Shown here piece after piece: positions 38,858-57,092 of a stretch of 64,000 nucleotides of DNA. The position numbers and the translations under genes are program-made. Below the pieces are notes generated by a model, which was not told the origin of the DNA, did no database searches, and worked only from the letters and a program-made list of their open reading frames with translations. The DNA lies in contig CAZUFC010000001.1 of the NCBI GenBank assembly GCA_964619725.1, positions 64,001 to 128,000 of the forward strand, in the 5' to 3' direction. Every line of letters starts with the position of its first letter. Position 1 is the first letter of the stretch. The stretch is from an uncultured bacterium (lineage in GTDB: Bacteria; CSSED10-310; CAZUFC01).

Positions 38858-39118
38858 CCTTCTTAGTCTCTGTCCACAAGCGTCGATTTTCCCGAATTTT
38901 ACTTCAGTTTGCTGATTTGCTCAGTCAACGTATAAGCGATACGTCGACTTCGGCGAACAGATTGACACGACGGGTAAGAATCAATTAATGTTTTCCAAAA
39001 GCCGGCGGGCAATGAAGTTTCAGATAGACGACTCGAATGCAGGCCTGAATCGGATAAAGAAGACTAAATAACCGTCGCTGTTAAAAAATGAGTCTCATAT
39101 TTCAGGAAGGAAGAGACT

Positions 39119-39322
39119 ATGACCAGGGAACAGGAAGAGATACCTGACGTTTCAATGACAAACACAAAGAAAGAGATGCCGGCGGCCTATAAGGAGTTGG
39201 TGGAAGAAATCGGGACGGTGGAAAAGGAGCTGGAGCAGCGGGAAAAAACTGAGCTGCTAAGCCAATCCGGCTCCCTCATCCGGTCCAGTATACCGGGAAG
39301 GCGATGCTCTTATGAGCGGTGA
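39119..39322 (+). CDS. Small hypothetical protein
   Basis: Purine-rich RBS; acidic coiled-coil-like; overlaps the start of the lipid kinase gene. Confidence 0.4.
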   Translation: MTREQEEIPDVSMTNTKKEMPAAYKELVEEIGTVEKELEQREKTELLSQSGSLIRSSIPGRRCSYER

Positions 39323-40220
39323 TCCGCCCAAAAAAAATAAGCAACCGTCAAAAGCGCTCGTAATAATCAACAGAAAAAGCAAGAACGGGAAAAAAATAGA
39401 TGCCGGTATCATTCGCTCACACTTTAAAAATAACAATATCGAGCCTCACATCGAGGATAGCGAAGAGCCTTCTCAGATACCCGGCATGATCGAGCAAAAA
39501 GCGTCGGGATTCAACATTATTGTTCTAGCGGGAGGCGACGGAACGCTTAACAGGGCATCAAGAGCTCTGGTAAAGGCCGGATTGCCGCTGGGGCTCATTC
39601 CATCGGGAACGGCCAACGACCTGGCTCGAACCCTGGGTATCCCTTCTGATGTCGAAAAAGCGTGTGAAATAATAGTGAACCGGAAAGTTCATACGATTGA
39701 TGTGGGTTCAGTGAATGATAAACTGTTTTTTAACATTGCCCATGTCGGACTCGGAACCAAAATTCTGGAAATCGCCGCTGAAAAGAAAAAAAAGTGGGGA
39801 ATTTTAAGCTACTTCTATTTTCTTTCCAAAGCGTTTGGAAAAACAAAGAAGTTCAGGTTAAAAGCTCTGTATGACGATAACGAGGAAGAACTCGATTCAA
39901 TCCAATTCTCAGTGGCCAACGGCAGATACTTCGCCCGTATTTTCCCCATCGATCAGTCTGCAAAAATAGACGATAATAAACTCCAGGCCGTCAATATTGC
40001 TCCCCACAGCTTAAAGGAACTTATTTTCAAATCTCCTTACTACTTCCTGGCCGACTACCAGAATCTGGAAAAACTGCACCGCATAGAAACGAAAAAGATA
40101 GAAATAACGACCGATAAACAACTTTCAATTGCAGCAGACGGAGAAATTATCGCCGAAACACCTGCAGAATTCAGAGTTCTGCCCAGAATAATCACTATTT
40201 TCATACCGGAAGATTATTAG
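39312..40220 (+). CDS. YegS/BmrU diacylglycerol-kinase family lipid kinase
   Basis: 'AGGDGT', 'PSGTANDLAR', 'ADGE'. Confidence 0.88.
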   Translation: MSGDPPKKNKQPSKALVIINRKSKNGKKIDAGIIRSHFKNNNIEPHIEDSEEPSQIPGMIEQKASGFNIIVLAGGDGTLNRASRALVKAGLPLGLIPSGTANDLARTLGIPSDVEKACEIIVNRKVHTIDVGSVNDKLFFNIAHVGLGTKILEIAAEKKKKWGILSYFYFLSKAFGKTKKFRLKALYDDNEEELDSIQFSVANGRYFARIFPIDQSAKIDDNKLQAVNIAPHSLKELIFKSPYYFLADYQNLEKLHRIETKKIEITTDKQLSIAADGEIIAETPAEFRVLPRIITIFIPEDY

Positions 40221-40240
40221 AATCAATAATTTAAACAGAG

Positions 40241-40693
40241 GTGAATAAAATTATGAGAGATGAAAAAACCGTTGCATTGGATAACGTTGTAATAAACTGC
40301 CGAATTGCAGCGGATCAGTATGATACTGCCGTATCGATCCTGGAGAATAAATATTTTGTCGAAAAGTTTAAAGAATTGTCGAAGGCAAGAAAACTAGTTG
40401 CCGGGAAAGTGGAGGAGCAAATCAGGGAGATGGGTTTCCTGCCTATGGATACCGACCCTGACCGCCAGGCGCTCAGAGAACTGATAACATGGGTAAAATC
40501 TCTGACTGCCTCAGACGAACGGCTTGCTTTGCTTGAAAAATTCGAAAGCATTGAAAAAGACATACAGAAGTCGATAGAAGAGGCTTACCAAAAAGATATT
40601 CCCAAAGAATCCAGGAAGACGCTCGACGAACTGAACCGGGAAATTGAAGAAACCAGAAATTGGATGAAAAAAACAAAAGAGGGCCTGGACTGA
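40241..40693 (+). CDS. DUF2383-like ferritin-fold protein
   Basis: Four-helix pattern with 'LSKARK...VEEQIREMG..P'. Confidence 0.5.
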   Translation: MNKIMRDEKTVALDNVVINCRIAADQYDTAVSILENKYFVEKFKELSKARKLVAGKVEEQIREMGFLPMDTDPDRQALRELITWVKSLTASDERLALLEKFESIEKDIQKSIEEAYQKDIPKESRKTLDELNREIEETRNWMKKTKEGLD

Positions 40694-40759
40694 ACAAAGA
40701 GCGTAAAAAGCCGGACAAAACCAAAAGCAGATTCAATGCGACCGCCGAACAATTCCTTT

Positions 40760-42847
40760 TCAAGCCGCTTTATCAATATTTTCGAGAATGTTTTTTAATC
40801 TCAAGAGCAGGATGTCTTCTCTTACGGGTTTTTTAATATAATCCACGGCTCCCATATTGAGACCTTTGTATTCATCTTCCGGGTCTATTCTCGCTGTCAG
40901 AAAGGCTACAGGAGTTTTTATCGCTTTCTGGTTCATTATTTCCAGGAGTTTGAAGCCGTTCATATTGGGCATATTGACGTCCGCCAGGACCAGGTCGAAT
41001 TGTTTCCGGCATAAATGCAGGAGCGCATCCAGACCGTCAGTCGCTTCTACTGTCCTGTAATTATGCTTATTGAGGACGTGACGGATCAGTTTTTGTGAAT
41101 CAAGGTCATCTTCAGCGACAAGTATTACCGGTTTCCGGTCGGAAGATTGTTTGCTTTGTGCACTTGTTTGTTCTTCACTGACGAAATTATTAATAGTGCC
41201 GGGTCGGTTTTCTTCAGCTAAAATTTTGTTATATACCTCTTCCGGCGAAAAGATAAAATCTTTTATTTTAAGCAAGGCATGATGATACAAAAGGAAATCG
41301 CCTCTTTTTCCCAAAGCGTTTCTGATTCGGGAAGGCGAAGTTCCATTTTTTATCATATCTTTTAATTCATCGTCGAATTCGATTATTTCACAGATGCCTT
41401 CCATTCCATAATAGCCGGTATTGTTGCATTTAGGGCATCCTGCGGGATAGGCGGCCTTATCGGGGATGTTTTTATAATAGGCTGAGAGCATTTTTTTATC
41501 CCGATCCTGCAGAGGACGGATTCGTTTGCAATGAGGGCACAATTTTTTCAGTATTCTTTGCGCTGCAGTCACCAGCATATTATCGGCAATGGAATTGAGG
41601 GGCACGCCCATCTTTTCCAGGCGGAACAGCGCCGTAGTGGAATTGGAAGTATTCAGCGCCGTAAGAACGAGTCGGCCTGAAGAAGCATAGTGAAACGCGC
41701 TTTGGGCGGTGAAAGCATCTTTAACTTCTCCGATGAAGAGGATATCCGGTTGTTGTTTAACGGCCGAGTCGAGGAGGAATTCAACCGTATTTCCCGCAGC
41801 ATTGTCGACTTCCATCTGGTTGGCGAAGGGAACATAGTATTCGATGGGGTCTTCGACTGTAATCAGGCTTCGGGATATGCAATCTATTTGCGATAAAAGG
41901 CTGTAAAGGAGGGCGCTTTTGCCGCTGTCGGCAGGACCGGCCACCAGGATCAGGCCGCTTTCCGCTCTGCGATCTCCGTCATCCGTAATTTTCAGCAACA
42001 ACTTTTTTTGTTCCTCGGTCATCCCCAGCTCATCCAGTGTACGGGTTTTACCGTGCGCATCCAGCAACCGTATGAAAAGGTTTTCGCCGTTGGGAGTTGA
42101 TGAGGCAGACAATTTAATCTTGTAGTTTTTATTGTTTATCGCAGAGGTATAGGTCCCTTCCTGCGGTCTGCCGCCTTCCCCTGTGTCCATACCGCTCTGC
42201 GTCTTGAATCGGTTTATAATGCGGGTCGCCATGTCGTTCTCCAACCTTCGGTAAATTTGCATATCGCCGTCGATCCTCAGACTGACCAGGGTTTCCGATT
42301 CCTTGCGTTGGACATGGATCGCATCGGCTCTTCTTTTGACTGCGTCGGATAAAAATTCATCAGCGAGCCTACCGACCGTTTCAATTTTATCCCGGAAATC
42401 GCTTTTCCAATCTTTTTGACCGGTAAGGAGTTTTTTCAAACCTCCGCTTTTATTTTCCGCTTTTTCATTCAACAGGCGAACTTCGGATTCATTATCATCC
42501 TTGTCGGCTTCGGAGGTATTGCAGTATATGACATGTAAATTGTCCATGTAACGGTCAAAAGCTTCGATCCATTTTTGTACGAGATGAGATGTTCTGTTTT
42601 TTGCGGCCCATTCCAGTCTTTCGCCGATCCTTGCTATCTGAAAAAAGCCGTATCCGCCCGCCGAACCTTTAATCTTGTGTCCTATCAGACGAATGCTTTC
42701 AAAGTCGTTCTGTTTCAGCGAGTCCTTAAGGAAATCGATCTCTTTTTTTTTGTTTTCCAGGAAACCGGGGATGAGTTCGCGAAGTTCCCGGTCGATTTTC
42801 ACTACGCAATTTGCAATATGCGGTTCATTATTACTGTTGACGGACAT
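40760..42847 (-). CDS. Hpt - GspE/PilB-type ATPase - receiver (REC) fusion protein
   Basis: Hpt 'IGHKIKGSAGGYG'; 'LRIDG', Walker A 'GPADSGKS', 'ITVEDPIEY', 'PDILFIGE', CPHC/CPKC; REC 'EDD...DVNMP...LTA...KP'. Confidence 0.85.
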   Translation of the reverse strand: MSVNSNNEPHIANCVVKIDRELRELIPGFLENKKKEIDFLKDSLKQNDFESIRLIGHKIKGSAGGYGFFQIARIGERLEWAAKNRTSHLVQKWIEAFDRYMDNLHVIYCNTSEADKDDNESEVRLLNEKAENKSGGLKKLLTGQKDWKSDFRDKIETVGRLADEFLSDAVKRRADAIHVQRKESETLVSLRIDGDMQIYRRLENDMATRIINRFKTQSGMDTGEGGRPQEGTYTSAINNKNYKIKLSASSTPNGENLFIRLLDAHGKTRTLDELGMTEEQKKLLLKITDDGDRRAESGLILVAGPADSGKSALLYSLLSQIDCISRSLITVEDPIEYYVPFANQMEVDNAAGNTVEFLLDSAVKQQPDILFIGEVKDAFTAQSAFHYASSGRLVLTALNTSNSTTALFRLEKMGVPLNSIADNMLVTAAQRILKKLCPHCKRIRPLQDRDKKMLSAYYKNIPDKAAYPAGCPKCNNTGYYGMEGICEIIEFDDELKDMIKNGTSPSRIRNALGKRGDFLLYHHALLKIKDFIFSPEEVYNKILAEENRPGTINNFVSEEQTSAQSKQSSDRKPVILVAEDDLDSQKLIRHVLNKHNYRTVEATDGLDALLHLCRKQFDLVLADVNMPNMNGFKLLEIMNQKAIKTPVAFLTARIDPEDEYKGLNMGAVDYIKKPVREDILLLRLKNILENIDKAA

Positions 42848-42916
42848 TTATATCTCCTTTTTTAAGATCGAAAAGCCATATACCTTTTTCACAATTCCAT
42901 TTTACTTGTTTCATGT

Positions 42917-44998
42917 CTATCCTGCTTTTTCGAGCTCCTCATCATTGTGCAGCGATTGATAATTAAGAATAGTATTCAATAAAACGCTTTTTTTAATGGG
43001 TTTGGTCACATGAGCATCGCAGCCTGCCTCAGCGCATTTGCCGGCATCTTCAGCGAACGCGTAGGCGGTCAAAGCGACTATGGGCGTCGCAGCCAGTCCC
43101 CGGTCTTTTTCCAGGCATCTGATTTCCCTGGTGGCATCATAGCCGTTCATGACCGGCATCTCTATGTCCATTAAGATTATATCATAATCGTTCCGATTGA
43201 ATTTTTCTACAGCTTCTTTGCCGTTTTCGGCCATATCCAGGTGAAAATTCGTCTTTTTAAGATACATTTCTATCAGTCGCCTGTTGTCTATTGAATCTTC
43301 CACGAGAAGTATGTTCAATGGTGGAATACGGGTATCAGTTCTATACTCACAGGTTTTCTTTGGAGGTGAACTTTTTTGATCCCCCATCTTCATTTCGGAA
43401 GAATGGTTTAAAGCTTTGAACAGGGCGGAGATGCCGACGGGTTTTTGCAGGAGGTTTGGCCTTTTATCTTTGCCGGAGAGTTCGAGGTTCAGCGCGTTTG
43501 TATTATTAAGCATCAGCGGAAGGGTCACGATAACAGCCGAATCATGCGGACACAGGCGTCTTATTTCCCTGTATTGATCACCGCCGCAGTCTTCCAGAAG
43601 CAGTTCCGCTGCGCATATTATGACTTGGAAGGGCTGATTGAACATGCGTCCCCTTTCAATTTCATCCAGGGCGTCATAAATATTATGAGCCGGGACCACC
43701 TTCGCCTCCATGCGACTCAGCATATCTTTCAGATGACCAAGGCTTTTTTCGTCCTGATCAGCAACCAGGATTCGTTTGCCTTTCATGTCCAAAGGTAAAT
43801 AATCCTGGTCCGTCTTATCGGGTCGAACGATCTTCATGGGCGCAGTGAATTGAAAACGACTGCCGGCGCCGGGAGCGCTTTCGACCCAGATTCTGCCGCC
43901 CATCAATTCCACCAGGCTTTTCGTGATCGCCAATCCCAGGCCCGTTCCCCCGAACCTCCGCGTTATCGACTCATCCGCCTGGGTAAAGGATTCGAATATG
44001 CCCTGTTGCTCCTCTTCAGGAATGCCTATCCCCGTATCTTCAACGCAAATTTTTATTTCCGTTTTATCGCCGTGGGATTCACAAAGCTCCGTCGTCTCAT
44101 CTGCTTTTTCCAGATAAACCCTGACCTCGCCGGCTTCCGTGAATTTGACGGCATTACCGATGAGATTGATAAGAATCTGCTTAAGCCGGTCGGGATCGCC
44201 AAAAACCTTTACCGGCCATAATTCGGGATCAGTTCTTATAAAAAAGCCGATATTTTTACGGGCAGCCTCCTGCGCCATAGTTACGCATGTTTGCTCAACC
44301 AGTTCAACCAGGTTGAATTTGCAAGCGCTCAGCTTCAATTCCCCTGCTTCCACTTTAGACAGATCGAGTATCTCATTGATGAGATTCAAAAGATGGCATC
44401 CTGAATTCTGAAGCATGGAGAGGTATTCCCGCTGTCTGTCGTTCAAATTCGTTTCCTCCAACTGGTCGACCATGCCGAGTATTATATTAAGGGGAGTCCG
44501 TATTTCATGACTCATACGGGCCAGGAACTGCGATTTAGCCCTGTTGGAGGTTTCTGCGGCTTCTTTGGCTTCCTTCAGCTCGCCGGTAAAAGATTCCAGA
44601 TGTTTCAACAGCTCAGCCCGTTGGATGGCGTACCGGATGGAACGTTCAAGCACGGATGCATCTATTTTGTCCTTCACCAGGTAATCGCATGCGCCGGCTT
44701 TCATTGAACGTATATCCGTTTCATGGTCGCTCATTCCCGTAAGCATTATCATGGGCGTTTTACAGCCGTTCCGGACTGCCTGTTTTATCAATTCCAGACC
44801 GGTACGACTGCCGAGCGAATAATCGATCAGGCAAACGTCATAAGGACCTGCAAGCAGTCTGCTCAGGCCTTCCGTAAAATTCGGAGCCCAATCCAGGGAA
44901 TAATTCGATTGTTTAATGTCGGAGATGACGTCGCATGTTATTATATAATCGTCTTCATCATCTTCTATCAGCAGTATTCTGATCGTTTCATCGGTCAT
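42917..44998 (-). CDS. Hybrid histidine kinase (REC-HisKA-HATPase-degenerate REC-REC), no Hpt
   Basis: 'FLARMSHEIRTPL', 'NLIGNAVKFT', 'DTGIG', 'GGTGLGL'; terminal REC 'MDIEMP'. Confidence 0.92.
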   Translation of the reverse strand: MTDETIRILLIEDDEDDYIITCDVISDIKQSNYSLDWAPNFTEGLSRLLAGPYDVCLIDYSLGSRTGLELIKQAVRNGCKTPMIMLTGMSDHETDIRSMKAGACDYLVKDKIDASVLERSIRYAIQRAELLKHLESFTGELKEAKEAAETSNRAKSQFLARMSHEIRTPLNIILGMVDQLEETNLNDRQREYLSMLQNSGCHLLNLINEILDLSKVEAGELKLSACKFNLVELVEQTCVTMAQEAARKNIGFFIRTDPELWPVKVFGDPDRLKQILINLIGNAVKFTEAGEVRVYLEKADETTELCESHGDKTEIKICVEDTGIGIPEEEQQGIFESFTQADESITRRFGGTGLGLAITKSLVELMGGRIWVESAPGAGSRFQFTAPMKIVRPDKTDQDYLPLDMKGKRILVADQDEKSLGHLKDMLSRMEAKVVPAHNIYDALDEIERGRMFNQPFQVIICAAELLLEDCGGDQYREIRRLCPHDSAVIVTLPLMLNNTNALNLELSGKDKRPNLLQKPVGISALFKALNHSSEMKMGDQKSSPPKKTCEYRTDTRIPPLNILLVEDSIDNRRLIEMYLKKTNFHLDMAENGKEAVEKFNRNDYDIILMDIEMPVMNGYDATREIRCLEKDRGLAATPIVALTAYAFAEDAGKCAEAGCDAHVTKPIKKSVLLNTILNYQSLHNDEELEKAG

Positions 44999-45467
44999 GC
45001 CGGCATTCCTTTTCCTCTTTCACAGGCAACAGCACTATTTCAAACCAGTATTTTCCGAAAGCGCCTATCAGTTCCACCAGTTCTTTGAAACTGACCGGTT
45101 TATTAATGAAGGAATTGACGCCCAGGTTATAGGACCTGATAATGTCCTCGTCCGATCTGGATGACGTGAATATGATGACGGGAATACTGCACAACTGCCG
45201 GTCGGTTTTAATTTCCTGCAACGCTTCGAAGCCGTCTTTCTTGGGCATATTGACGTCCAGTATAATCAAATCAGGTCTCGGCAATTGTCCGAATCCGGAA
45301 AACCGGCCTGTTCCATTCAGATAATCCATCAGCTCCTGTCCGTTATAAACGAATCTCAGGTCATAGGCCATGTGATTCTCTTCAAACGCCTCTTCGACCA
45401 TAAGCCGGTCGTCCGGATCGTCGTCCGCCATAAGTATGATCAACGATTTCGATTTGTCATTCATCAA
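44988..45467 (-). CDS. Single-domain response regulator, Rcp1-like
   Basis: 'ADDDPDD', 'PDLIILDVNMPKKDG', 'SYNLGVNSFINKPV'. Confidence 0.9.
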   Translation of the reverse strand: MMNDKSKSLIILMADDDPDDRLMVEEAFEENHMAYDLRFVYNGQELMDYLNGTGRFSGFGQLPRPDLIILDVNMPKKDGFEALQEIKTDRQLCSIPVIIFTSSRSDEDIIRSYNLGVNSFINKPVSFKELVELIGAFGKYWFEIVLLPVKEEKECRHDR

Positions 45468-47076
45468 CTCGCTTCCTCTTTATCTGTTTCACCGGTAAAG
45501 TAATCTCAAACAAAGCCCCCTGGCCGGGCTCGCTTTTTGCCGTTATGCCCCCGCCGTGGTATTTCACTATCTTTTTACAAAGCGCCAACCCTATCCCGCT
45601 CCCGTTATATTCGCTCCTCCCGTGCAACCGCTGAAAAATCGTGAATATCCGCTCGGCATATTGTGCATCGAATCCGATGCCGTTGTCCTCCACGGTTATA
45701 ATGCAGAATTCGCCGAACCCCGGCGCTGAGCAACCGGGAGGCTCCTGTTCGGATATGCGTCCGGTTATTTTTACATACGGGCTTATGCCGGGTTTCTGAA
45801 ACTTGAGTGCATTCCCCGTTAAATTCTGCAGAAGGACTTTCATTTGCGTACGGTTCGCCTCTATGACGGGCAATCCCGAATATTCTATCCGGGCGCCGGA
45901 TTCTTTTATCTTGACTTCAAGATCAGAGATGACTTCCTCCACCACGTTTCGAAGATCGACTTCATTGAAATCAGGGGCTCTTCTCGTTACACGGGAAAAC
46001 TGCAGCAGATCATTGATCAGGCTCTGCAGCCGGCTCGCCGCATTACGCATTCTCTTTAAATAATCCAAACCTTTTTCATCCAGCGAACCAGCATATTTCT
46101 GACCCAGCCGCTCGCCGAAAACCTGTATCTTACGCAACGGTTCCTGGAGATCGTGTGACGCAGCGTAAGCGAATTGTTCCAGTTCAGCGTTGGACCGCAC
46201 AAGAGATTCATTCAATCGCTTGAGTTCCTCTTCCGCGGCTTTACGGTCTGAAATATCCATCAGGTTCGTCACTATGCCGATAAGTTCGCCGTCCTGCCCC
46301 TCAAGCCTGGACGCAGTCAGAATAAAAGGTATTGATTTTTCTCCCCGAGCCTGGAGAGTCACCTCAAATTCCACCGTTTTCTTGCCGTTCTGTATCTGAC
46401 GCAAGGGACATTCATCCGTCTCACAGAGTCGGTTTTCTATTATTTCCCGGCACCGGCGGTCGCCCGGATGACCGCGGCGTATTCCCAAAAGCTCCACCAC
46501 CTTATCGTTCAGACGGAGGACTCGAAAATCCCTGTTGATCACAAGCATCCCATGCGAGGTCGTGTTGAGTATCTGGTCCAGTTGGGTATAAGCCATCGCC
46601 AAAGCTTTTTCGGCTCTTCTCCGGGATGATATGTCTTCATACGTTCCCAGTATGCCGATAACCCGACCTTTGTCGTCCACCATAGGGACTCTGTTCACCT
46701 GGTACCATCTCTTCTCACCGTTTTCCAGAAGACGCGGCTCAATTAAATTAATCTCCGCCTCATTGTCCTCCATGACGCGGTTCTCACACGCATGAAAATA
46801 TTCCGCCTGACGTTCAGACCAGGGAAGGTCTTCATCCCTCTTGCCGACGATCTCTTCTGCATTATGAAACCCCAGCTCGCGTGCAAAATTCATATTACAG
46901 CCCAGATACCTCCCTGTCCTGTCTTTCCAGAAAACGCTCTGAACAATGTTTTCAATAACAAGATTCAACAACTGGTGCGGCGATTGAATTTTTGCCAATG
47001 CCGCTTTATAGGCGCCGGATTTTCCGGCTTTGGTTTCATACTCGCTGTGGTCTTTGTTTGGTACGCTGACTTTCAT
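45457..47076 (-). CDS. Cytoplasmic PAS-PAS histidine kinase (Cph1-like kinase module)
   Basis: PAS 'VFWKDRTGRYLGCN'; 'LEQFAYAASHDLQEPLRKI'; 'FQRLH...GSGIGLA'; no TM seen. Confidence 0.92.
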   Translation of the reverse strand: MKVSVPNKDHSEYETKAGKSGAYKAALAKIQSPHQLLNLVIENIVQSVFWKDRTGRYLGCNMNFARELGFHNAEEIVGKRDEDLPWSERQAEYFHACENRVMEDNEAEINLIEPRLLENGEKRWYQVNRVPMVDDKGRVIGILGTYEDISSRRRAEKALAMAYTQLDQILNTTSHGMLVINRDFRVLRLNDKVVELLGIRRGHPGDRRCREIIENRLCETDECPLRQIQNGKKTVEFEVTLQARGEKSIPFILTASRLEGQDGELIGIVTNLMDISDRKAAEEELKRLNESLVRSNAELEQFAYAASHDLQEPLRKIQVFGERLGQKYAGSLDEKGLDYLKRMRNAASRLQSLINDLLQFSRVTRRAPDFNEVDLRNVVEEVISDLEVKIKESGARIEYSGLPVIEANRTQMKVLLQNLTGNALKFQKPGISPYVKITGRISEQEPPGCSAPGFGEFCIITVEDNGIGFDAQYAERIFTIFQRLHGRSEYNGSGIGLALCKKIVKYHGGGITAKSEPGQGALFEITLPVKQIKRKRVDE

Positions 47077-47509
47077 TTTTCCGTGTCTTCAAGAAAAAAA
47101 TAATCGGAATAAAGGCAATCCAGCCCGCCATGCCGGGCAAAAACGGATTAGTAAGGATCAGCCGCTTTACCGAAAATAGATTCAATCCGGCAGACTTCTA
47201 TGGATTGACTGATAAAAAAAAGAAATTATATTTTGCGAATGCAGATTGGAATAGCTTCTCCCCCCAGGTTCCCACTCCTGTCAAAGATTAAGTATAAGAA
47301 AAACATCAGACATGTCAATTTTTTGGCGGCCGATGACTGCAGAGCAACAATTTCTGCGCTGCCGGCATTGCTTGCCGGCGTATGTCCAGCTTTAAATTTT
47401 GAATTGAGGTTCGAGTTTGTAGACGGACGCTTGCTAATGAAGCCGTGCATTACCTGGCGAAATCCAAAACCGGCGGGCCGGAATCTGCGCTTATATAGAT
47501 TAAAATTTT

Positions 47510-47665
47510 GGGACTGATCAAACCGGGGTGACGCTTCTTGCAAAACTTTCGGCGGTTTGTTTCATTAATCGGGGTCGGTATCGTGGTCGGTATCGCAATC
47601 TCAACAAAACGAATGGATATTCTGTAGGATTGTAACCTCAAAGGATGCATTTTTGATCAATGCCC
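47510..47665. mobile_element. MITE-like element (family B), full-length copy
   Basis: gggactgatcaaa ... tttgatcaatgccc terminal inverted repeats; reverse-complement homologue at ~52140-52283. Confidence 0.75.
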
Positions 47666-47869
47666 AATAAATTGTCCGGCGTACTCAATAACCCTTGCGG
47701 TTTCCAAAATTTTCTTCCGAATTGTCACTGCAATAAATTCACTAATGACTTGGATGCTAACCACAATATCATGAGACAATAACAAATCTTCAGCAATTTC
47801 TCTCTTACTGCGATCATCCGCCACTGAGTATACCAGTATATTTGTATCGATGAAAATACTATCGTTCAT
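47657..47869 (-). pseudogene. vapC: Truncated PIN/VapC toxin
   Basis: 'IFIDTNILVY' and 'SIQVISEF' PIN motifs but only 70 aa; stop codon lies inside the MITE terminal repeat. Confidence 0.75.
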
Positions 47870-48104
47870 GAAGTTCTTCCCGGTTGAATCGGTAATGCTC
47901 CGGCAGCTTACCGTCTGCTTCCTGAAAGATTTTTGTTAGAATCTGCTGTTTTTGCTTTCGGGATTGCTCGTATTTCCCCAAATATTTGAAGACTAAAAAT
48001 TCATAGAATGTAGCCAATTCGCGTTGAGCAGCCTCAGGCAGCTTCCCGACGTCAATGTTCTGATTCAATGTTTTCAAATACCGGGTGAGGTTGTTCTTAA
48101 TCAT
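47859..48104 (-). CDS. Putative antitoxin (DUF2281-like)
   Basis: ggagg RBS before ATG 48104; 'LPEAAQRELATFYEFL', ends 'FNREELHER'; overlaps the PIN start. Confidence 0.65.
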   Translation of the reverse strand: MIKNNLTRYLKTLNQNIDVGKLPEAAQRELATFYEFLVFKYLGKYEQSRKQKQQILTKIFQEADGKLPEHYRFNREELHER

Positions 48105-48503
48105 TATTCCTCCGCCCTCTTGATTTAAACTTTCAAGGCATTTGTCCGCTATCAAAAAATCTCGCAAATAAGACATCAACCATCAAGAGTTTTCCTCCCA
48201 CTTGCCTTGTCCCCCTTTACCCATAATACTATAGAACTTTCAAAAGTAAAAATCAACGTCTGCAACAGAAAACGAACCGCCTTTTGAATAAGAAAAGCGC
48301 TGCCTTCAGTCTAACACATCATCGGGCGCGTGATCGATTGTTTTTCCCCCATACTCTATACAAACAGAAAACAGTGAAACACTATGCCGCATTGCATCTC
48401 GACCAGGTTCCCGCCCTGCTGAGCACAAACACGACGTACGATGGGACAGGAACGCTGCCGGCGCAGTGAGAAGATCATGAACTGATAACGTATTAATGAT
48501 ATT

Positions 48504-51500
48504 TTAATGTTTTTCCCTTTGGACCAGGACAAATATCGAAGTCAGAAGAATAAATAGGATCGTTTTGCCGAGGGGACCGGCGGCCGGAATGGGAGCCGGA
48601 GTCGGCGAAGCTGTGGGTGTGGGCGACCAGTTGGGTTGTATGGTTATTTCAAAGCATGCAATGGAGTCGCTGTAGAATCCGTCGATTGAGTTGTATCCGA
48701 TGTCGCCCATGGCGACCCAGGCCGGGGCTCCGTGACCTGTGAGTCCGCCGTCCAGGTCCATGATGTCGGTCACATGTCCGGCTACGTTGAAGAAGGAGAT
48801 GGTGACTACGAGGTCGTTTATGATGGTGGTTCGGGAATCGGAGTTGAGCAGGCAGTTGCAGGGTTGGAAATATGTCATGTCCTGTTTGCCGGGATGGCAG
48901 GGAATGTAATGTCCTCCTGCATCGGCGGCGGCGCCCTGGAAGGGAACGTCGTCCAGTGATGCAACGGTCGGATTATCGCCGGAAGTAAAGGAATCGCCAG
49001 TGGAGTCGTCGCTTATGAAGGCCGCGAGCAGGCCTGTTGATGATATTTCCATTGCGGAAGGACACAAGACGGTGAACCTGTTGGAGCCCATCTTCAGAGG
49101 ATGGTTGAGCCTGTTTTTGGTTAGACCGGACATGTAAATGTATTCGCCGTGGTCGCCGGCATTGTAGGGGACGTTTGATGCTTCCGGTCTGTTTATTACA
49201 TTGATGGACGGATCGAGTTCAGCGACGTCTATGCCGGCGATGGAACCCTGATTCTGGAATGCCGGAGCGCCCAGTCCCGCATCGAGGATATGGTTCAATC
49301 GAATCTGGGCTCCCTGGTAACTGAAGTTCGTACCGAAATCGTAGTAACCTTCGATGACGGCCAGGTCCATCTGTCCGCCGTCCCATCCCGTCGAGGGTAC
49401 AGGATCGAGAAAGATGCTGTCCTGGTAAAAGCGTTCTTCTCCGGCTTCCAGGCCGGGAATATGTTGAACGATGAAGATATCATTGAGGAAAAGGGAACTG
49501 GGCGGTGAAGTCGGCGTAGGAACGGGAGTAAATGTCGATCCTGCAGTGGGCGTTTCAGTGGGGGTTATAGTAGGCGTGGGAGACGACGTAGGCGTTAATG
49601 TGGGACCGTATGTAGGAGTATAAATATATTCGACGAGGAGCTCGAGGTAGACGACGCAATCAGGCATGGAGTCGTCGATGGAGTTGTAACCGATATCCTC
49701 ATCAACGATCCAGCCTGGAGCGCCGTGACCGCTGAGTCCGTGCGGCAGTCCCATGCCTGAACCGACATCGCCGGCGACGTTGAAATAGGTTACGGTTATG
49801 CGATAATTGCCTGATTCCATGAATCTGCTGTCGTCGGCGAATTGATGCGTGCAGGATTGAAAATAGGGCGCATCCGTTTGTCCGGGATGCGGAGGGATGT
49901 ATTGTCCTTGAGCGTCCGACGTCGAACCTTGAGACGTCGAATCATCCAGGCAGGCTACTGATGGCGGGTCGTTCTGCTGGAATGTTTCTCCTGACGGATC
50001 GTGACTGATGAAGGCTGCGATTATGCCCCGGTTGCTGAATTCCATGGCATCAGGGGATATGATGGTAAAACGGTTGTATCCGACGGATAATTCGCGGTTT
50101 AGTTTACTTTTGTTCATGCCGGAACCTTGAATAAAGTCCTGATGGCTGTCTGCATCGTAAGGACAGTTGTCGACGGACGGACGATTGAGTATGGTAATTC
50201 CCGCGTCCAGTTCTTTTACTCCCGCCGTGTCGATGGAACCTCTGTCGATGAAATCCGGCGCTCCCAGCCCGTAATCCTGCACGTCTGCAGGGTCGATCTG
50301 TCCGCCCTGATCCGTATAGCCGGTATTGAAATCGTAATATCCCTCGATGACTGCCAGGTCTATCAAACCGCCGTCCCAGCCGGAAGTGGGGATTAAACTG
50401 TCGATGATAGTGTCCTGGTAATACCGGTTATCTCCGTACCCCGCATTTTTGTATTGCGCCAGGTATATATCGTTCAGGTATATCTTTGAAGGATCAAATG
50501 TCGGCGCCGGCGTCGGGGTCAAGGCTGATGTCGGAGTCGGCGTCGGCGTGGCCGTCGGCGGCCCTGAATCATGCCAGGTGACGAAAGGATTGCCCATCAG
50601 TATCTTATCGTCGACCGAGCGGAAAAAATAATGATCGTCGCCCCAAATAATGTCGGAATTGCGCATCTGGTAATATCCCTTGGCCAGATAATTATCCGGA
50701 GTCGCAGCCAGGCCTTGAATAAGCAATTCGTGGAATCCGGCGAAGAGTCCCGTGGACTGCGAGGAAGCAGAACCGTAAAAGGTTACGCACGCAGTGTTGT
50801 CCGCGAAAACCAGATTGTTGCCTATGCCCCGTTCGTAAGCCGGATTCGGTCCCGTGGTTCCCCGGAAATTGCCGTTGTTGCATCCGCTTGACGTTATGAA
50901 ATTGGGGCAGCGGTCCTGCTGTATCAGGGATACGTTTTCATAATTAAAGGAGTTTCCGCCTCCGTGATAATATACGGCATCAGCTCCGCCGTGACAGAAA
51001 AGATGACAATATTTGAAAATGGTTTGATTCCACAAGTAAAACAGTTCGTCCACTTTAATATCATCGATGCTTCCATAGGGATGCTCATATGGCGTAAAGT
51101 CAAGACTTGCATTAAATCCTTCCCAGTCGCTCCCGTTCCAGTACCTCTCCTTGGTCAAATCCTGAGGATATATCCAGTAGGGAACGCCGGCGTATCCCCA
51201 CATCAGGTCCTGGTCCGACGAATAAACACCGAAGTGCATTATCTGTTCCGCAGTGCGGCCGCCCGATTCCAACAGCAGGTTTATCCATTCCGAATTGAAT
51301 CCCAGGTTGGTCATGTTGCTTCCGATATAAAGCATGGCGTCCTCTCCTTCTATCTGACCGGAATAGTAATCATCGAGTTTTTCCAGATATCCGTTCAGGT
51401 AGAAGCCGTGATCGCTCACATCCTCTGCAGGCGGTATCCACCAGGCCGTCCAGATTTCCGTCGCATTAGTCCACGGATCGGTGATGACCTGCTCAAAATG

Positions 51501-51905
51501 TCCGTCCGCCGGCGACTGGTCGATCCATTCCGCTTCAAAATCTTCATAATAGAACGGAGCAGGGTTTATGTCGCCGTTTCCGTGACGGTAGGTCGCATAA
51601 GGAATGGTCCCGGCCAGGATGGCTCCGCCTATGTCGTTCCCGCTGTAATAATATTCGTCATGGAGCATTTGTCGGACGTCCGACGGAGTATAAGAATTAT
51701 AAAAATCATCGGCGATTATCTGAACGTCCACATTGAAACGGTCATCGACATGACCGACGTAAACGTCAAGATTATCAGCGATTTGATCATATACATCCGG
51801 CTCATTGTTGTTGACGAGAAACAGAACCGTTTCCGCATGCGCCGGACCGTTGAAAATAATAAACGAAACGATGCCGAAGATTAGTATTCGACAAAATTGC
51901 TGCAT
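48504..51905 (-). CDS. Secreted C25/gingipain-like domain plus two tandem ~290-aa unknown domains and IPTL-CTERM-like anchor
   Basis: ggag RBS, ATG 51905 and signal peptide; 'GAILAGTIP', 'FCHG', 'SGCNNG', 'ILMGNP'; internal duplication; C-terminal IPAAGPLG plus TM plus basic tail. Confidence 0.65.
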   Translation of the reverse strand: MQQFCRILIFGIVSFIIFNGPAHAETVLFLVNNNEPDVYDQIADNLDVYVGHVDDRFNVDVQIIADDFYNSYTPSDVRQMLHDEYYYSGNDIGGAILAGTIPYATYRHGNGDINPAPFYYEDFEAEWIDQSPADGHFEQVITDPWTNATEIWTAWWIPPAEDVSDHGFYLNGYLEKLDDYYSGQIEGEDAMLYIGSNMTNLGFNSEWINLLLESGGRTAEQIMHFGVYSSDQDLMWGYAGVPYWIYPQDLTKERYWNGSDWEGFNASLDFTPYEHPYGSIDDIKVDELFYLWNQTIFKYCHLFCHGGADAVYYHGGGNSFNYENVSLIQQDRCPNFITSSGCNNGNFRGTTGPNPAYERGIGNNLVFADNTACVTFYGSASSQSTGLFAGFHELLIQGLAATPDNYLAKGYYQMRNSDIIWGDDHYFFRSVDDKILMGNPFVTWHDSGPPTATPTPTPTSALTPTPAPTFDPSKIYLNDIYLAQYKNAGYGDNRYYQDTIIDSLIPTSGWDGGLIDLAVIEGYYDFNTGYTDQGGQIDPADVQDYGLGAPDFIDRGSIDTAGVKELDAGITILNRPSVDNCPYDADSHQDFIQGSGMNKSKLNRELSVGYNRFTIISPDAMEFSNRGIIAAFISHDPSGETFQQNDPPSVACLDDSTSQGSTSDAQGQYIPPHPGQTDAPYFQSCTHQFADDSRFMESGNYRITVTYFNVAGDVGSGMGLPHGLSGHGAPGWIVDEDIGYNSIDDSMPDCVVYLELLVEYIYTPTYGPTLTPTSSPTPTITPTETPTAGSTFTPVPTPTSPPSSLFLNDIFIVQHIPGLEAGEERFYQDSIFLDPVPSTGWDGGQMDLAVIEGYYDFGTNFSYQGAQIRLNHILDAGLGAPAFQNQGSIAGIDVAELDPSINVINRPEASNVPYNAGDHGEYIYMSGLTKNRLNHPLKMGSNRFTVLCPSAMEISSTGLLAAFISDDSTGDSFTSGDNPTVASLDDVPFQGAAADAGGHYIPCHPGKQDMTYFQPCNCLLNSDSRTTIINDLVVTISFFNVAGHVTDIMDLDGGLTGHGAPAWVAMGDIGYNSIDGFYSDSIACFEITIQPNWSPTPTASPTPAPIPAAGPLGKTILFILLTSIFVLVQREKH

Positions 51906-52034
51906 GATGTCTCTCCATACAAAATGCTTACTGAATTTAAAAAAAAAAGAGAACAAAGAGCCCGGCCGATTTAAGGCAACCGATCGCATGCAAGCAGACA
52001 TAATGAGAACGGCTGAATCGGCGCACCTGTAAAA

Positions 52035-52520: not shown

Positions 52521-55500
52521 ATGCGGTTCATGGAAAAAAATTCTAAAGGACGAGTAAAGGGTAAAGAATTCGGGAGGATTAAAAAATTGAAAAAAAGTTA
52601 TTTTCCATTTTTGCTATGGACGATTCTGTTATTAATCGGGCCGGCGGCACACGGGTCCTGGATATCATTTGACGGTTATATTTCTTCAAAAGAGCAAATA
52701 AATGAATCGGTTGAGAGCGACTGGGAGCGTGTCGAATTGAAGATGTCCCTTTCCGGCGTTTCAATAGAGGCTATCGAACTGAAGGGGAAACGTTTCACGT
52801 ATCTTGATTTCGATGAACGTACATACAAGGGAGAGATCGGAGCTCCCCGGATACCTGTATTAAGACGATATGTCGAGGTCCCGCGATATTGCAGAGTTGA
52901 ACTTGAAGCAAGCGTAACGGAAGAGTCGGTCATTTCATTGAGCGAAGCGGGATATCCTTATCCTCTGGCGCCGGTTCAGCCGCCTGTTCCGAAGCTGCCG
53001 GGGGCTTATGAATCAATGCCGTTGGCGATGGACGAATCGATTTATGACCGTAACGAATATTTAAGTGAGAAGGGAGTGCGCATACAGGACGACGGAATCA
53101 TGAGGGGCCGTCGCCTGATTGTTCTTGAAATAAATCCGTTATCGTATAATCCGGGTTTGAATTCGATACGAGTCGTGAAAGAGATAGAGATAAGTTTAGT
53201 ATTAAAAGAGGTGGACCGGGAACAATCAATCGCGCACGCAGAGCGTTATCACAGCGTGCCTTTCGATCAATTGCTGTCAGAGCTCACAGTGAATCACGGT
53301 GATTTTTTAACTTATGATTTTCCGCCGGCGGCTCCGATAGGATATTTGATTATCTGCAGTCCCGGTTATCAAACGGCGTTGAATTCTTTTGTCGATTGGA
53401 AGACGCGGTGCGGGTATGAAGTTACGATAGAGGATGCGCCGGCGGGAGCGAGTACGACCACGATCAAGAATATCATATTGAATGCGTACCAGAGTTGGCC
53501 TAATCCTCCTGATTACGTTCTTCTGGCGGGCGATACGAATACCATACCGACATTTTCAGGCGATTCTTCTAATTCAGAGGATGATCTTCAGTATACGGAG
53601 CTGGAAGGGTCGGGATACTGGACGCCTGACGTAATGCTGGGGCGTTTTCCGGTCAGGTCGACGACGGATTTGAACAATGTGGTGGAAAAGGTATTGCAGT
53701 TTGAGCAGATGGGCATGCCGTCGACCGATTATTTCAAGGATTCGGTATGGCTGGCATCATACGATAATTATTCCATGGTTGAAGGCACGCATGAATGGTG
53801 CTGGAACAATCACATCCAACCGATAGACCCTTCGAACAACACTTACCATGCCGTGTATGAGCGCCTTGACGGGGACACTTCAGATTTTGCTTCAAACGTT
53901 AATGCAGGTCGCGGGTTCGTCTGTTATTCAGGACATGGATACGGCAACGGATCAGGAACGTCCAGCATCCATTTCGTAAACTCGAACGTACAGGCGCTGA
54001 CCAATCAGGATAAATACGGCCATGTGATGGTGCTGGCCTGCGGAACGAATCTTTATGAGCAGACGGTCTCTTTCGGCGAATGCTGGGTCTTGGAGGAGGA
54101 CAAAGGATCGGTCTCCTACTGGGGAACGTCCGACAGCTCTTACTGGGATGAGGATGACATTAAGCAGAAAGAAATATACCGGTGTCAGCATCAGGACCTT
54201 CTGCACACGCTCGGCGCCATGTATTTCAAGGGATTAATCGAGGTGTACGATTCGGGAAGCGGTTCTGCCGGTTATTATTTCGATATATATAATCTTATGG
54301 GGGATCCGTCGGCCGATTTCGTCACTCGAATTCCACAGACGCCGGTCGTTACGCATGCCGACTCGGCGCCGCCTCAGGAGCAGTTCTTCCAGGTAACGGT
54401 GACGGTAGGCGGAACCGCACGCGCCGGAGCTCTCGTGGGAATAACCATGAATCAGACTTTACTGGGCGCAGGCTATACTAACTCATCAGGCGTCGCCTCC
54501 GTTCATATAAGTCCATCGGATGCGGGATCGGCTTTGATTACGGTGACGGGACATAACCTGGAGCCTGTTCAGTCGCCGCTGACGATCTCGGCGAGCGGTT
54601 GCGGCCAGTTAGCCCTGGATGCTTCCCTGTATGCTTGCAACGACATCATAACCATAACCGTGTCCGATGCTGATTTAAATCTGAATCCCAATGCTCCGGA
54701 CAGCGCCCAGGCCGATATTTCTTCAAACAGCGAACCTGCGCCAGAAACGGTTATGTTGACGGAGACCGGCAACGACACAGACGTTTTCAGCGGCTCTATT
54801 CAGACTTCGACGACCCAGGGCGGTTCGGGGTACCTGCTGACGTCACACAACGATGTTATTACGGCGCATTACCATGATGAGGACTGCGAAGGCGAGCCGC
54901 TGGACCTGTACGCCGCGGCAGATGCGGATTGCCGGGGTCCGATGATCACAGGACCAGAGGCGAGCAATATCGGGGGAACCGTTGCGACTGTTTTCTGGTC
55001 GACGGATGAGCCGGCTGACGGCGACGTTTACTATGGAACGACGACCCCGCCTTCCCTGCATGCAGGCAATCCTCTGATGATGACGGATCACGAATTCACA
55101 TTATCGGGCCTGACGCCGAATACGACCTACTATTATTACGTAGTCAGCGCCGATGCACTGGGTAACTCGACCACTGCAGACAACGGAGGCGTTTATTATT
55201 CTTTCCAGACTTCGGACAGTCTGTCCATACTGGTTATTGACGACGGCTCATCTTCCGCTGCAACCATCGTTTCACATCTCCAGACGCTGGGGAACATAGT
55301 GCAGATGGAAACAGCGGGAGGCACCAACCCTTCCGGATGGCCGGATTACGACTGTATCGTGTGGAGTTCAGGCGACAACGCCTCGCCGGTCAGTTCTTCC
55401 GGTTATCGATCTTCCCTGGAAAGTTACGTCGGCGCTGGGCATCCCTTGTGGATCGAGGGCGGAGAAACAGGCTATGATGCGATATCCTATCCGGGGTATC

Positions 55501-57092
55501 CGACCTTCGCTTCTGAAGTTCTCCATGCTGACGAATGGGAATCAGACAGCTCTGGCAATATAGCGGTCTACAATACGTCTCACCCACTGGTAACGGTCCC
55601 CAATGTCCTGCCTTCAACCATTTCTTGCGACTACAGCGAATACGGCGATCAGGATGCCGTAAGCGAAACAAGCGATGCGGCGCGGATATGTTCCTGGACC
55701 TCGGAAAGCGGATACGCGTCGATCATAGCTTACGACGTTGACGGAAATCCGGATAACGGCGGACAGATCGTTTTCACGAGTTTCGATCTAATCGAGACAG
55801 CCTCTGCCTCGCAGGAACCTATGATACAAAATATCATTCAATGGCTGACGGCCAGCGGACCTCAACCGACTCCGACCCATACGAAGACCCCCACCAGGAC
55901 CCCGACCAGGACGCCCACAGCGCCGTTGACTTTCACTCCGACCATTACGCCTTCGCCGACTTCTACGGCCACACAATCCACGCCGGCAACGCCGACCGCA
56001 ACTCCCACGCAATCACCCACCAGAACCGTCACCCGCACGCCGACCGATACCGCCACTCCTACCATTACGCCCACTTCGGAAACCTCGGATTGCTCTATAC
56101 TTCTCGTGGACGACGATGACGATGATCCCGACGTTCGGACCTATTTTACCCAGGCACTGGATATCCTGGGTTATGACTATTACATATTTGATACGGGCGG
56201 CGGCTCCGGAAACGGCCCCGCATTGGCAATGATGAATAATTATGATGCTGTAGTCTGGTTTTCCGGTGATAAATACGGTTATGACGACCCGCAAGCCGGT
56301 CCTAACTCCCAGGATGAAAACAGCCTTGCCTCGTACCTTGACGGCGGAGGCCGACTATTCCTCGATTCCCAGGATTATTTGTACGACATGGGAATTACAA
56401 ACTTCGGAGCCGATTACCTGGGCATATCCTGGCATCAAAACGATACGGCTGAGGCATCCTGGCTTTACGGCGTGCCGGGAGACCCGGTGAGCGGCGCCTA
56501 CACAGGCGGGTTAAGTTTAAGCAATCCTCCGGGTTTTTACGAGTACGGCGATGTAATATCTATAGCGACAAGCGCTGATTCGCTCTTTCTGATTGACGGA
56601 CTGAGCGGCGATACGACGTGCGCCAAAAAAGACGGCGGCGTTTGGCGCACCGTGTTTTTCAGCACGAGCTGGCTGCTGATAGCGCAAGATGACGAAACAG
56701 CAGGAAGAAACGTAATGCAATCCATCCTCTCCTGGCTTTGTCCTGACGCATCAACGCCGACCGTGCCGCCATCCCCTTCGCCGTCCAATACGCCGACTTT
56801 CAGCCCGACAAGTACGCCGACGGATCAGCCGACGCAAACCCCGACGATCAGCCCGACAAGAACGCCGACAAATATTCCAAGCCGTACGCCGACCTATTCG
56901 CCTACCGGAATGCCGACGAAAACAGCGACAGCTTCGTTCACGTCTGTCCACTCTGCTACGCCTTCGCCCACATCCACGATTGAGATCGCTCCCGTACCCG
57001 CCATGTCGCCGACCGGCTTACTTTTGACGGTCATTCTGCTCGCCGGCTTCATCGGAGCCGGAGTGAAAAATAGGACGAGAAGAACCCATTAG
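52521..57092 (+). CDS. Gingipain-like C25 cysteine peptidase with propeptide, Ig/FN3 domains, PT linkers and IPTL-CTERM-like anchor
   Basis: Propeptide 'GAPRIPV'; 'YVLLAGD', 'PDVMLGRF', 'YSGHG' (His), 'LACGT' (Cys), 'YNLMGDPS'; C-terminal VPAMSPTG plus TM plus RTRR. Confidence 0.88.

Follow-up and report, generated by a model that had tools for sequence, protein, structure and literature searches.

A four-gene locus of an uncultured bacterium encodes a candidate phosphorelay ending on a PilB/GspE-type ATPase fused to Hpt and receiver domains

The relay locus

The end point of a phosphorelay is normally a transcription factor or a small protein of the CheY type, which acts on a motor in trans. 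Here, we analyze a 64,000-nucleotide stretch of DNA from an uncultured bacterium (GTDB lineage Bacteria; CSSED10-310; CAZUFC01), henceforth termed the window, which corresponds to positions 64,001 to 128,000 of contig CAZUFC010000001.1 in assembly GCA_964619725.1 and carries a candidate relay whose last receiver (REC) domain is located within a secretion-type ATPase. Four co-oriented open reading frames (ORFs), P0001 to P0004, lie within positions 40760-47076 of the minus strand; neighbors overlap by 11 bp at two of the three borders and are 69 bp apart at the third. An initial annotation, made from the letters alone, had read this arrangement as a PAS-PAS kinase, an Rcp1-like receiver, a hybrid kinase without a histidine phosphotransfer (Hpt) domain, and an Hpt-ATPase-REC fusion; ORF coordinates, Pfam matches and solved relatives agree with it. 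The four genes and the parts of P0004 are as follows:

45457-47076, minus strand: P0001, 539 residues, predicted soluble PAS-PAS-HisKA-HATPase_c sensor histidine kinase with phospho-accepting histidine H308
44988-45467, minus strand: P0002, 159 residues, stand-alone Rcp1-like receiver with D71, T101 and K123
42917-44998, minus strand: P0003, 693 residues, hybrid kinase with the order REC-HisKA-HATPase_c-pseudoREC-REC
40760-42847, minus strand: P0004, 695 residues, Hpt-T2SSE-REC
42524-42832, minus strand: Hpt domain of P0004, residues 6-108, with the H57 codon at 42677-42679
42383-42523, minus strand: charged linker of P0004 at the fusion junction, residues 109-155
41234-42382, minus strand: T2SSE region of P0004, residues 156-538, comprising the N2 and C-terminal ATPase domains of PilB/GspE/MshE type
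40796-41125, minus strand: C-terminal receiver of P0004, residues 575-684, matching Response_reg with 91.6 bits

The stand-alone receiver P0002 matches Pfam Response_reg with 76.9 bits, and its label as Rcp1-like holds because Rcp1 (1i3c, E 5.5e-27) and RcpA/RcpB are among its top solved relatives. Its start codon is TTG, with an ATG one codon downstream. P0003 consists of an N-terminal REC (D59), HisKA at residues 154-219 (H164), HATPase_c at 267-389 and a C-terminal REC at 563-677 (D611), and Pfam finds no Hpt in it. Its first description as REC-kinase-REC was correct in that both receivers are real, but it missed a further receiver-like stretch at residues ~408-530, which lacks an acceptor aspartate and separates the kinase from the last REC. 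P0002 and the two real RECs of P0003 contain the receiver signature residues (acidic pocket, Asp, Thr/Ser and Lys).

Both phosphoacceptor domains of P0004 appear intact, as first described. The N-terminal domain passes the Pfam Hpt model (PF01627) with 30.4 bits against a cut-off of 24.6 over residues 29-104, and with 34.5 bits in a genome-level search. Its histidine H57 lies in IGHKIKGS (IGHKIKGSAGGYG), which matches HxxKG[ST], and the domain departs from 7 of 27 conserved columns, each time with a BLOSUM62 score of at least 0. The C-terminal receiver keeps D580/D581, the acceptor D623 (codon 40979-40981), T651 and K673, and retains 19 of 20 family-conserved REC columns, with one altered. A good ribosome-binding site, AAAGGAG, is located 7 nt ahead of the P0004 ATG. 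All four proteins are predicted to be soluble, and none of them contains a membrane-like segment (0/4), so that the locus offers convenient access, by in vitro work, to the ATPase family discussed below.

The parent family and the origin of the P0004 fusion

A search of 5.8 billion protein clusters returned 707 matches to P0004, and the 119 relatives listed among them are 40-48% identical over residues ~155-690, i.e., the T2SSE and REC portions, which cover ~75-86% of P0004. Precomputed Pfam annotations assign T2SSE and REC to these 119 relatives and MshEN to most of them, and 13 that were aligned (alignment A1) are mostly REC-MshEN-T2SSE-REC proteins of ~840-910 residues. In this alignment, the P0004 linker 109-155 matches the stretch just before N2 and stands in for the REC-MshEN part of the parent family. 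The listed relatives come from metagenome-assembled genomes (MAGs) that carry labels such as Desulfobacteraceae, Syntrophales, Smithella and WOR-3, and ESM Atlas clusters of this domain composition reach sizes of up to 3005 members. Together, the listed relatives and the cluster sizes indicate that T2SSE-REC proteins form a large family that bears names from automatic pipelines only. The initial annotation had offered the locus as an undescribed system; instead of standing in isolation, P0004 is a derived fusion variant of this family. A full-text literature search, with most subscription journals outside its coverage, found no study of a T2SSE-REC or Hpt-T2SSE protein. An architecture REC-MshEN-T2SSE, with Gmet_3473 as example, is listed, with no functional study, in Wang et al. 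2016 (PMC5013675, Supplementary Table 4). New here are the direct Hpt-ATPase fusion without MshEN and the erosion of its catalytic site, while the parent family has been catalogued but not studied.

In many phyla, these ATPases belong to a module that combines a hybrid kinase (kinase, pseudo-REC and REC), an Hpt protein of ~110 residues and a (REC-)MshEN-T2SSE-REC ATPase. A Gemmatimonadota locus (L025) encodes a hybrid kinase, the ATPase and then a 110-residue Hpt, locus L027 a hybrid kinase followed by the ATPase, and a Fermentibacteraceae locus (L030) a REC, a PAS-kinase-REC-Hpt protein and then the ATPase; within the stretch examined, no kinase was found at L026 and L029. To reduce bias, metagenome contigs were sampled by the family receiver motif MPNLDGFKL, i.e., not by Hpt, which yielded 78 loci, 43 of them with a family ATPase ORF. 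In 27 loci, the ATPase is flanked by 600 nt or more on either side; 26 of these carry a small same-strand Hpt ORF within 1.5 kb and 14 a histidine kinase within 5 kb. This conservation of the neighborhood, which had been named as a check on the first reading, is accompanied by a preferred order: across all 43 ATPase loci, 26 Hpt ORFs are located upstream and 5 downstream of the ATPase. Of these small Hpt ORFs, 28 of 28 score above the Pfam Hpt cut-off. MshEN matches were obtained for 35 of the 43 family ORFs, the other 8 being contig-end fragments or a split ORF (L174).

Other genes also recur around module ATPases. Directly downstream, prepilin-type proteins with Laminin_G_3 or 3-keto-disaccharide-hydrolase-like domains occur, and of the 32 loci whose downstream flank extends over 1.5 kb or more, 11 contain a strict prepilin motif. 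A protein of 171-183 residues, with an N-terminal CxxC...CxxC zinc ribbon, one membrane helix and no Pfam family, is encoded in 9 loci; it lies downstream of the ATPase in L114, L142, L145, L161, L162, L166, L179 and L180 and forms a pair with the lectin-domain protein of prepilin type immediately behind the ATPase gene. Between the Hpt gene and the MshEN-bearing ATPase, five sampled loci contain an ORF of ~300-314 residues:

L105, 7572-8474
L116, 6688-7626
L151, 6873-7811
L173, 6688-7626
L177, 939-1880

The two of these five that were scanned, from L116 and L105, are REC-GGDEF diguanylate-cyclase response regulators, a position that suggests that the relay may also feed cyclic di-GMP (c-di-GMP) to the MshEN domain. 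A single PilC query gave no match in 84 module loci; in the genome that encodes P0004, this query matches 7 contigs.

The P0003 core and the P0004 Hpt resemble module proteins more closely than paralogs from their own genome. Residues 6-108 of P0004 are collinear from end to end with the stand-alone module Hpts of 103-135 residues, and H57 aligns with the histidine of 22 of them. The best module match, from L137 (109 residues), reaches 98.4 bits, and the 22 module loci span 55-98 bits, versus 21 bits for the best other Hpt in the 9.2-Mb genome. Likewise, the P0003 core (residues 140-686) matches module kinases of other phyla with 405, 382 and 380 bits, versus 314 and 303 bits for the best own-genome paralogs; the 405-bit match is the module kinase of L152, and P0003 itself lies directly upstream of P0004. 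P0003 and P0004 are therefore the copy of the module in this genome. P0001 and P0002 appear to be an additional input to it; a kinase and a small receiver are also located upstream of the module in a few sampled loci (L148, L157 and L174). Instead of the PAS or GAF sensors usual in module kinases, P0003 has a receiver at its N-terminus.

Based on these comparisons, a module Hpt gene, usually located just upstream of the ATPase gene, appears to have fused in frame to the ATPase with loss of the REC-MshEN part. That the fusion could be an assembly chimera, a possibility raised at the outset, was rejected, as the junction at 42383-42523 occurs with 100% identity in contigs of three samples from one study (runs X1, X2 and X3, of which X1 may be the source). 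A merger of two genes by frameshift was also rejected, since it would have retained REC-MshEN and given a protein of ~960 rather than 695 residues.

Fusions of this kind are rare in the collections searched. No Hpt occurs in the 119 other relatives listed among the 707 matches, and a search with P0004 residues 1-150 gave no match beyond P0004. The ESM Atlas clusters contain T2SSE, REC and MshEN and no Hpt, and none of the 43 metagenome family ORFs (0/43) includes an Hpt in the same ORF as the ATPase. No match at E <= 1e-80 was found in any of 13 other genomes of the same phylum, and the best match in 40 other genomes (these 13 and 27 of other phyla) is 34% identical. Among the best 150 matches in 1.84 billion representatives, only P0124 carries an Hpt, and a search with its N-terminus added P0273. 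These two proteins from Elusimicrobia MAGs (1050 and 1078 residues) have the order REC-Hpt-REC-MshEN-T2SSE-REC and are the only others found with an Hpt and a T2SSE-REC ATPase on one polypeptide. Unlike P0004, they place a REC before the Hpt and retain the full REC-MshEN part, and the T2SSE score of P0124 is typical of the family (342.9 bits versus 247.9 for P0004). The Hpt domains of P0124 and P0004 are distant (27 bits). The differing layout indicates a separate fusion event, so that the Elusimicrobia fusion presumably arose independently of that in P0004; it looks as if the REC-Hpt end of a hybrid kinase had been fused onto the ATPase.

As a natural gene fusion of the "Rosetta stone" kind, P0004 links the module Hpt physically to the ATPase-receiver and provides the strongest sequence-level argument that phosphate may pass from Hpt to ATPase-REC throughout the family. 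The collinearity of its Hpt, the kinship of P0003 and the Hpt genes at 26 of 27 loci give strong comparative support to the earlier proposal that phosphoryl flow would end on the ATPase polypeptide itself. A different route would make the Hpt the functional part of P0004, passing phosphate from P0003 to other response regulators, with the ATPase-REC portion as a sink or localization tag. It is common for one Hpt protein to serve more than one receiver, two-component genes abound in the genome, and the P0004 Hpt keeps HxxKG with none of its 7 changes scoring below 0. However, the protein's own receiver is its best-conserved part, and across the family the Hpt gene accompanies the ATPase-REC gene rather than other regulators; we consider such a hub quite improbable.

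The ATPase core of P0004 and its possible role

The ATPase portion of P0004 matches T2SSE with 247.9 bits over profile positions 6-368 of 370 and solved GspE, PilB and PilF chains with 168-184 bits, yet it stays under the NCBIfam equivalog cut-offs for GspE (250.4 versus 630) and PilB (245.7 versus 676). A match to MshEN/N1 (PF05157) was not found in P0004, whose N-terminus is the Hpt. The core keeps the Walker A lysine K310, the Asp-box glutamate E336 (EDPIEY), the catalytic glutamate E374 (IGEVKD), R260 and the cysteine pairs C437/C440 and C471/C474 of the zinc motif. At columns at least 93% conserved among 212 family members, other positions of the site have changed. Within Walker A (41915-41938), the family sequence GPTGSGKT has become GPADSGKS, which still fits GxxxxGK[ST]; this includes G307D, at a position that is glycine in 211 of 212 members, and T306A. 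Both histidines of the His box (41639-41686) are replaced, H392R and H399N, which are histidine in 203 and 209 of the 212 members, respectively, and R245K affects a position that is arginine in 210 of 210. Further core changes are R376K, R417L, R482M and D176A. In total, P0004 differs at 28 of 100 such T2SSE columns, while the family median is 1 (n=212).

Roles of several of these residues have been described in Geobacter PilB. In an alignment to 5zfr_A, P0004 residues K245, R260, E336, R392 and N399 correspond to R271, R286, E357, H413 and H420. According to McCallum et al. 2017 (PMC5424180), H420 coordinates the AMP-PNP gamma-phosphate, T411 is described as located between H413 and H420, and R271 binds E357, the glutamate of the Asp box, and senses the nucleotide state; the same paper describes the Walker motifs, along with the catalytic glutamate, a pair of arginine fingers and the Asp-box glutamate, as completely conserved. 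Of the two N2 arginine fingers, P0004 has thus replaced the R271 equivalent by K245 and kept the R286 equivalent as R260.

These losses bear on the question whether P0004 is a working motor. It could serve as the ATPase of a type IV filament or type II secretion system (T2SS) encoded elsewhere, with the relay switching the motor via the C-terminal receiver. The T2SSE fold is retained together with K310, E374, E336, R260 and all four cysteines of the zinc motif; in the parent family, every motif is preserved, and 11 of 32 loci have prepilin-type genes behind the ATPase; and the genome (9.17 Mb in 344 contigs, 90.9% complete) is rich in pilus and secretion systems. As a search for pil and gsp genes revealed, it contains 27 T2SSE matches, and on 7 further contigs PilC-type platform genes neighbor different, canonical ATPases. 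On the P0004 contig itself no PilC-type gene is present, and among the ten full-length T2SSE matches with the best scores P0004 ranks last. This genome, G000, has an unusually large set of type IV filament/secretion ATPases; its phylum is represented by 14 genomes in the collection. Against a motor stand the replacements in the His box (both histidines), at the arginine finger equivalent to R271 and at the glycine of Walker A (for the Geobacter PilB residues, see PMC5424180), and the lack of partners in the vicinity. In agreement with the first reading, a Pfam scan of the 27 large ORFs in the window detected no pilin, PilC, secretin or T2SS gene, and a prepilin-motif regular expression gave no match in the six frames of the window. 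The zinc-ribbon membrane protein and the lectin-type pilin of the module were not found in the 90.9%-complete genome with single-protein queries run with no positive control. We therefore regard a working pilus or secretion motor as unlikely.

Loss of the motor function might also mean that the gene no longer has any function and is a decaying remnant of a module that lost its pilin partner genes. P0004 sits on a long branch (root-to-tip distance 1.30 versus a median of 0.82; rank 4 of 202), MshEN and the N-terminal REC have been lost, catalytic residues are eroded and partner genes are absent nearby. In contrast, the 695-codon frame is intact and preceded by its good ribosome-binding site, all phosphoacceptor and receiver signature residues are retained, the tight operon-like layout of the four genes persists, and the sequence is identical in contigs of three samples. 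A remnant of this kind is thus very unlikely.

We favor, by a modest degree of belief, a soluble His-Asp-His-Asp relay that ends on a PilB-derived switch or scaffold with little or no ATPase activity. The core keeps the fold, the Walker A lysine, the glutamates and the zinc motif but has lost the His box, one arginine finger and a glycine of Walker A, a combination that suggests a phosphorylation-switched ring or scaffold. The initial annotation had left the choice between direct control of a motor and of a motor-derived scaffold; the same losses make the motor doubtful and favor the switch or scaffold. From the domains, residues, family relations and neighborhoods observed here, we infer a direction of phosphate flow, a reduced ATPase activity and an output. 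P0001 would sense a signal and pass phosphate from H308 to D71 of P0002 and/or to D59 of P0003, the latter being an input to P0003. P0003 would autophosphorylate at H164 and transfer the phosphate to its own D611, from where it would reach H57 and then D623 of P0004. Phosphorylation of D623 might then alter the conformation or assembly of the PilB-derived ring of P0004, which probably still binds nucleotide and would hydrolyze it poorly or not at all. The persistence of the module with an eroded site, and without c-di-GMP input or pilin partners, suggests that the ATPase scaffold can have a signaling role independent of a motor.

Several points weigh against such a switch. The Hpt could have a partner receiver other than that of D623. 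The fit to the Walker A consensus, the retained lysine and glutamates and the second arginine finger may allow residual or altered ATPase activity. The link to Geobacter PilB numbering presumes a 14-residue tag in 5zfr_A, with all five mapped positions (5/5) being of the expected residue types. P0004 falls inside the family tree, and its placement is uncertain given the long branch and a parent-node support of 0.24. Finally, the whole protein sits on a long branch, and the margin by which changes in the ATPase domain exceed those in Hpt and REC is statistically weak: Fisher tests gave p=0.04 against REC alone, p=0.22 against REC and Hpt together, and p=0.055 when only changes with negative BLOSUM62 scores were counted. 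The case for decay of the motor rests for that reason on which residues changed and not on their rate.

Eroded ATPase cores are also present in P0174, P0175, P0176 and P0161, with 20-35 of ~100 conserved columns altered. P0174, P0176 and P0161 retain REC and MshEN, while P0175 retains REC and lacks an MshEN match. Below the root, no clade unites P0174 with P0004 or P0175/P0176, which suggests separate decay events, although long branches are hard to place; motor decay may thus be recurrent in the T2SSE-REC family.

A more far-reaching view would make P0004 a self-contained signaling device, a catalytically dead, ring-forming pseudo-ATPase bearing the Hpt as well as the last receiver of its relay. 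Its phosphorylation state would govern other type IV filament or secretion machines of the genome, e.g., by competition with their genuine ATPases for PilC/PilM platforms. We give this only a small chance. If true, P0004 would be the first pseudo-motor regulator of this class of type IV filament/secretion machines, and the rare fusion would constitute direct evidence for the wiring of the whole kinase-Hpt-ATPase module.

Surroundings of the locus and comparison with known systems

The best promoter-like match lies upstream of P0001:

47291-47318, minus strand: sigma-70-like promoter candidate, TTGACA-16-TATACT, 11/12 match, ~215 nt upstream of P0001

Twelve promoter-like sites were found versus 9.9 expected from shuffles, so that this site is a candidate only. 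An Rfam scan of positions 39000-49000 returned a single chance miRNA match, far under the gathering score. The 27 large ORFs of the window have unrelated functions, e.g., TamA/TamB, multihaem cytochromes, a molybdopterin dehydrogenase and a C25 peptidase. At 47657-48179 (minus strand), between the relay operon and the next gene, lies what looks like a broken toxin-antitoxin pair. It comprises a 70-residue ORF, which is a truncated VapC-like toxin gene as its match (31.8 bits) spans only the first 54 of 120 PIN-domain positions, and, just upstream, a 106-residue ORF with a weak DUF2281 match. The ORF directly upstream of the operon (48504-52001, minus strand; 1165 residues) has no Pfam match even at E 0.05. 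A C25 (gingipain-type) peptidase of 1523 residues is encoded at 52521-57092 (plus strand), 5.4 kb from the operon, and in L030 the gene immediately behind the family ATPase (10940-13204) encodes a C25 peptidase that bears a Por secretion tail; the presence of such peptidases near both ATPases may be coincidence. Further away, at 16967-18661 (plus strand), a 564-residue ORF with collagen triple-helix repeats is located beside TamA/TamB-like genes and a 731-residue multihaem cytochrome.

Compared with known systems, the His-Asp-His-Asp logic proposed for P0001 to P0004 is common to multistep phosphorelays of the ArcB, BarA/GacS and TorS/TorR type. P0003 scores 410.9 bits against the BarA model and 362.4 against the TorS model, both well under the model cut-offs. 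In contrast to these canonical relays, the Hpt is separate from the kinase, and the terminal receiver is located on a secretion-type ATPase rather than on a DNA-binding domain. A terminal receiver within such an ATPase, in P0004 as well as in its parent family, points to direct post-translational control of a machine.

With PilB, GspE (EpsE), PilF and MshE (1p9r, 4kss, 5zfr, 5tsg and 5it5), P0004 has in common the N2 and C-terminal ATPase domains, the Walker A lysine, the Asp-box glutamate, the catalytic glutamate and the tetracysteine zinc motif. It differs from them by the missing N1/MshEN, by an Hpt in front and a REC behind, by the replaced His-box histidines, R271-equivalent arginine and Walker A glycine, and by a gene that is not located beside PilC, pilins or a secretin. 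The REC-MshEN-T2SSE architecture in Wang et al. 2016 (PMC5013675) likewise joins a receiver to an MshE-type ATPase, whereas P0004 is without MshEN; the accessible part of Supplementary Table 4 lists neither a T2SSE with a C-terminal REC nor an Hpt-T2SSE protein.

The closest known counterpart is the module of uncultured Thermodesulfobacteriota, Gemmatimonadota, Elusimicrobiota and others. P0004 departs from it in that the Hpt is fused instead of forming a separate protein of ~110 residues and in that the N-terminal REC and MshEN are missing, P0003 in that a REC takes the place of the PAS/GAF sensors, and the locus as a whole in its eroded catalytic residues and its lack of pilin-like or zinc-ribbon neighbors. 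Both have in common the T2SSE core with a C-terminal receiver, the Hpt subfamily, the type of hybrid kinase, and the order from kinase to Hpt to ATPase.

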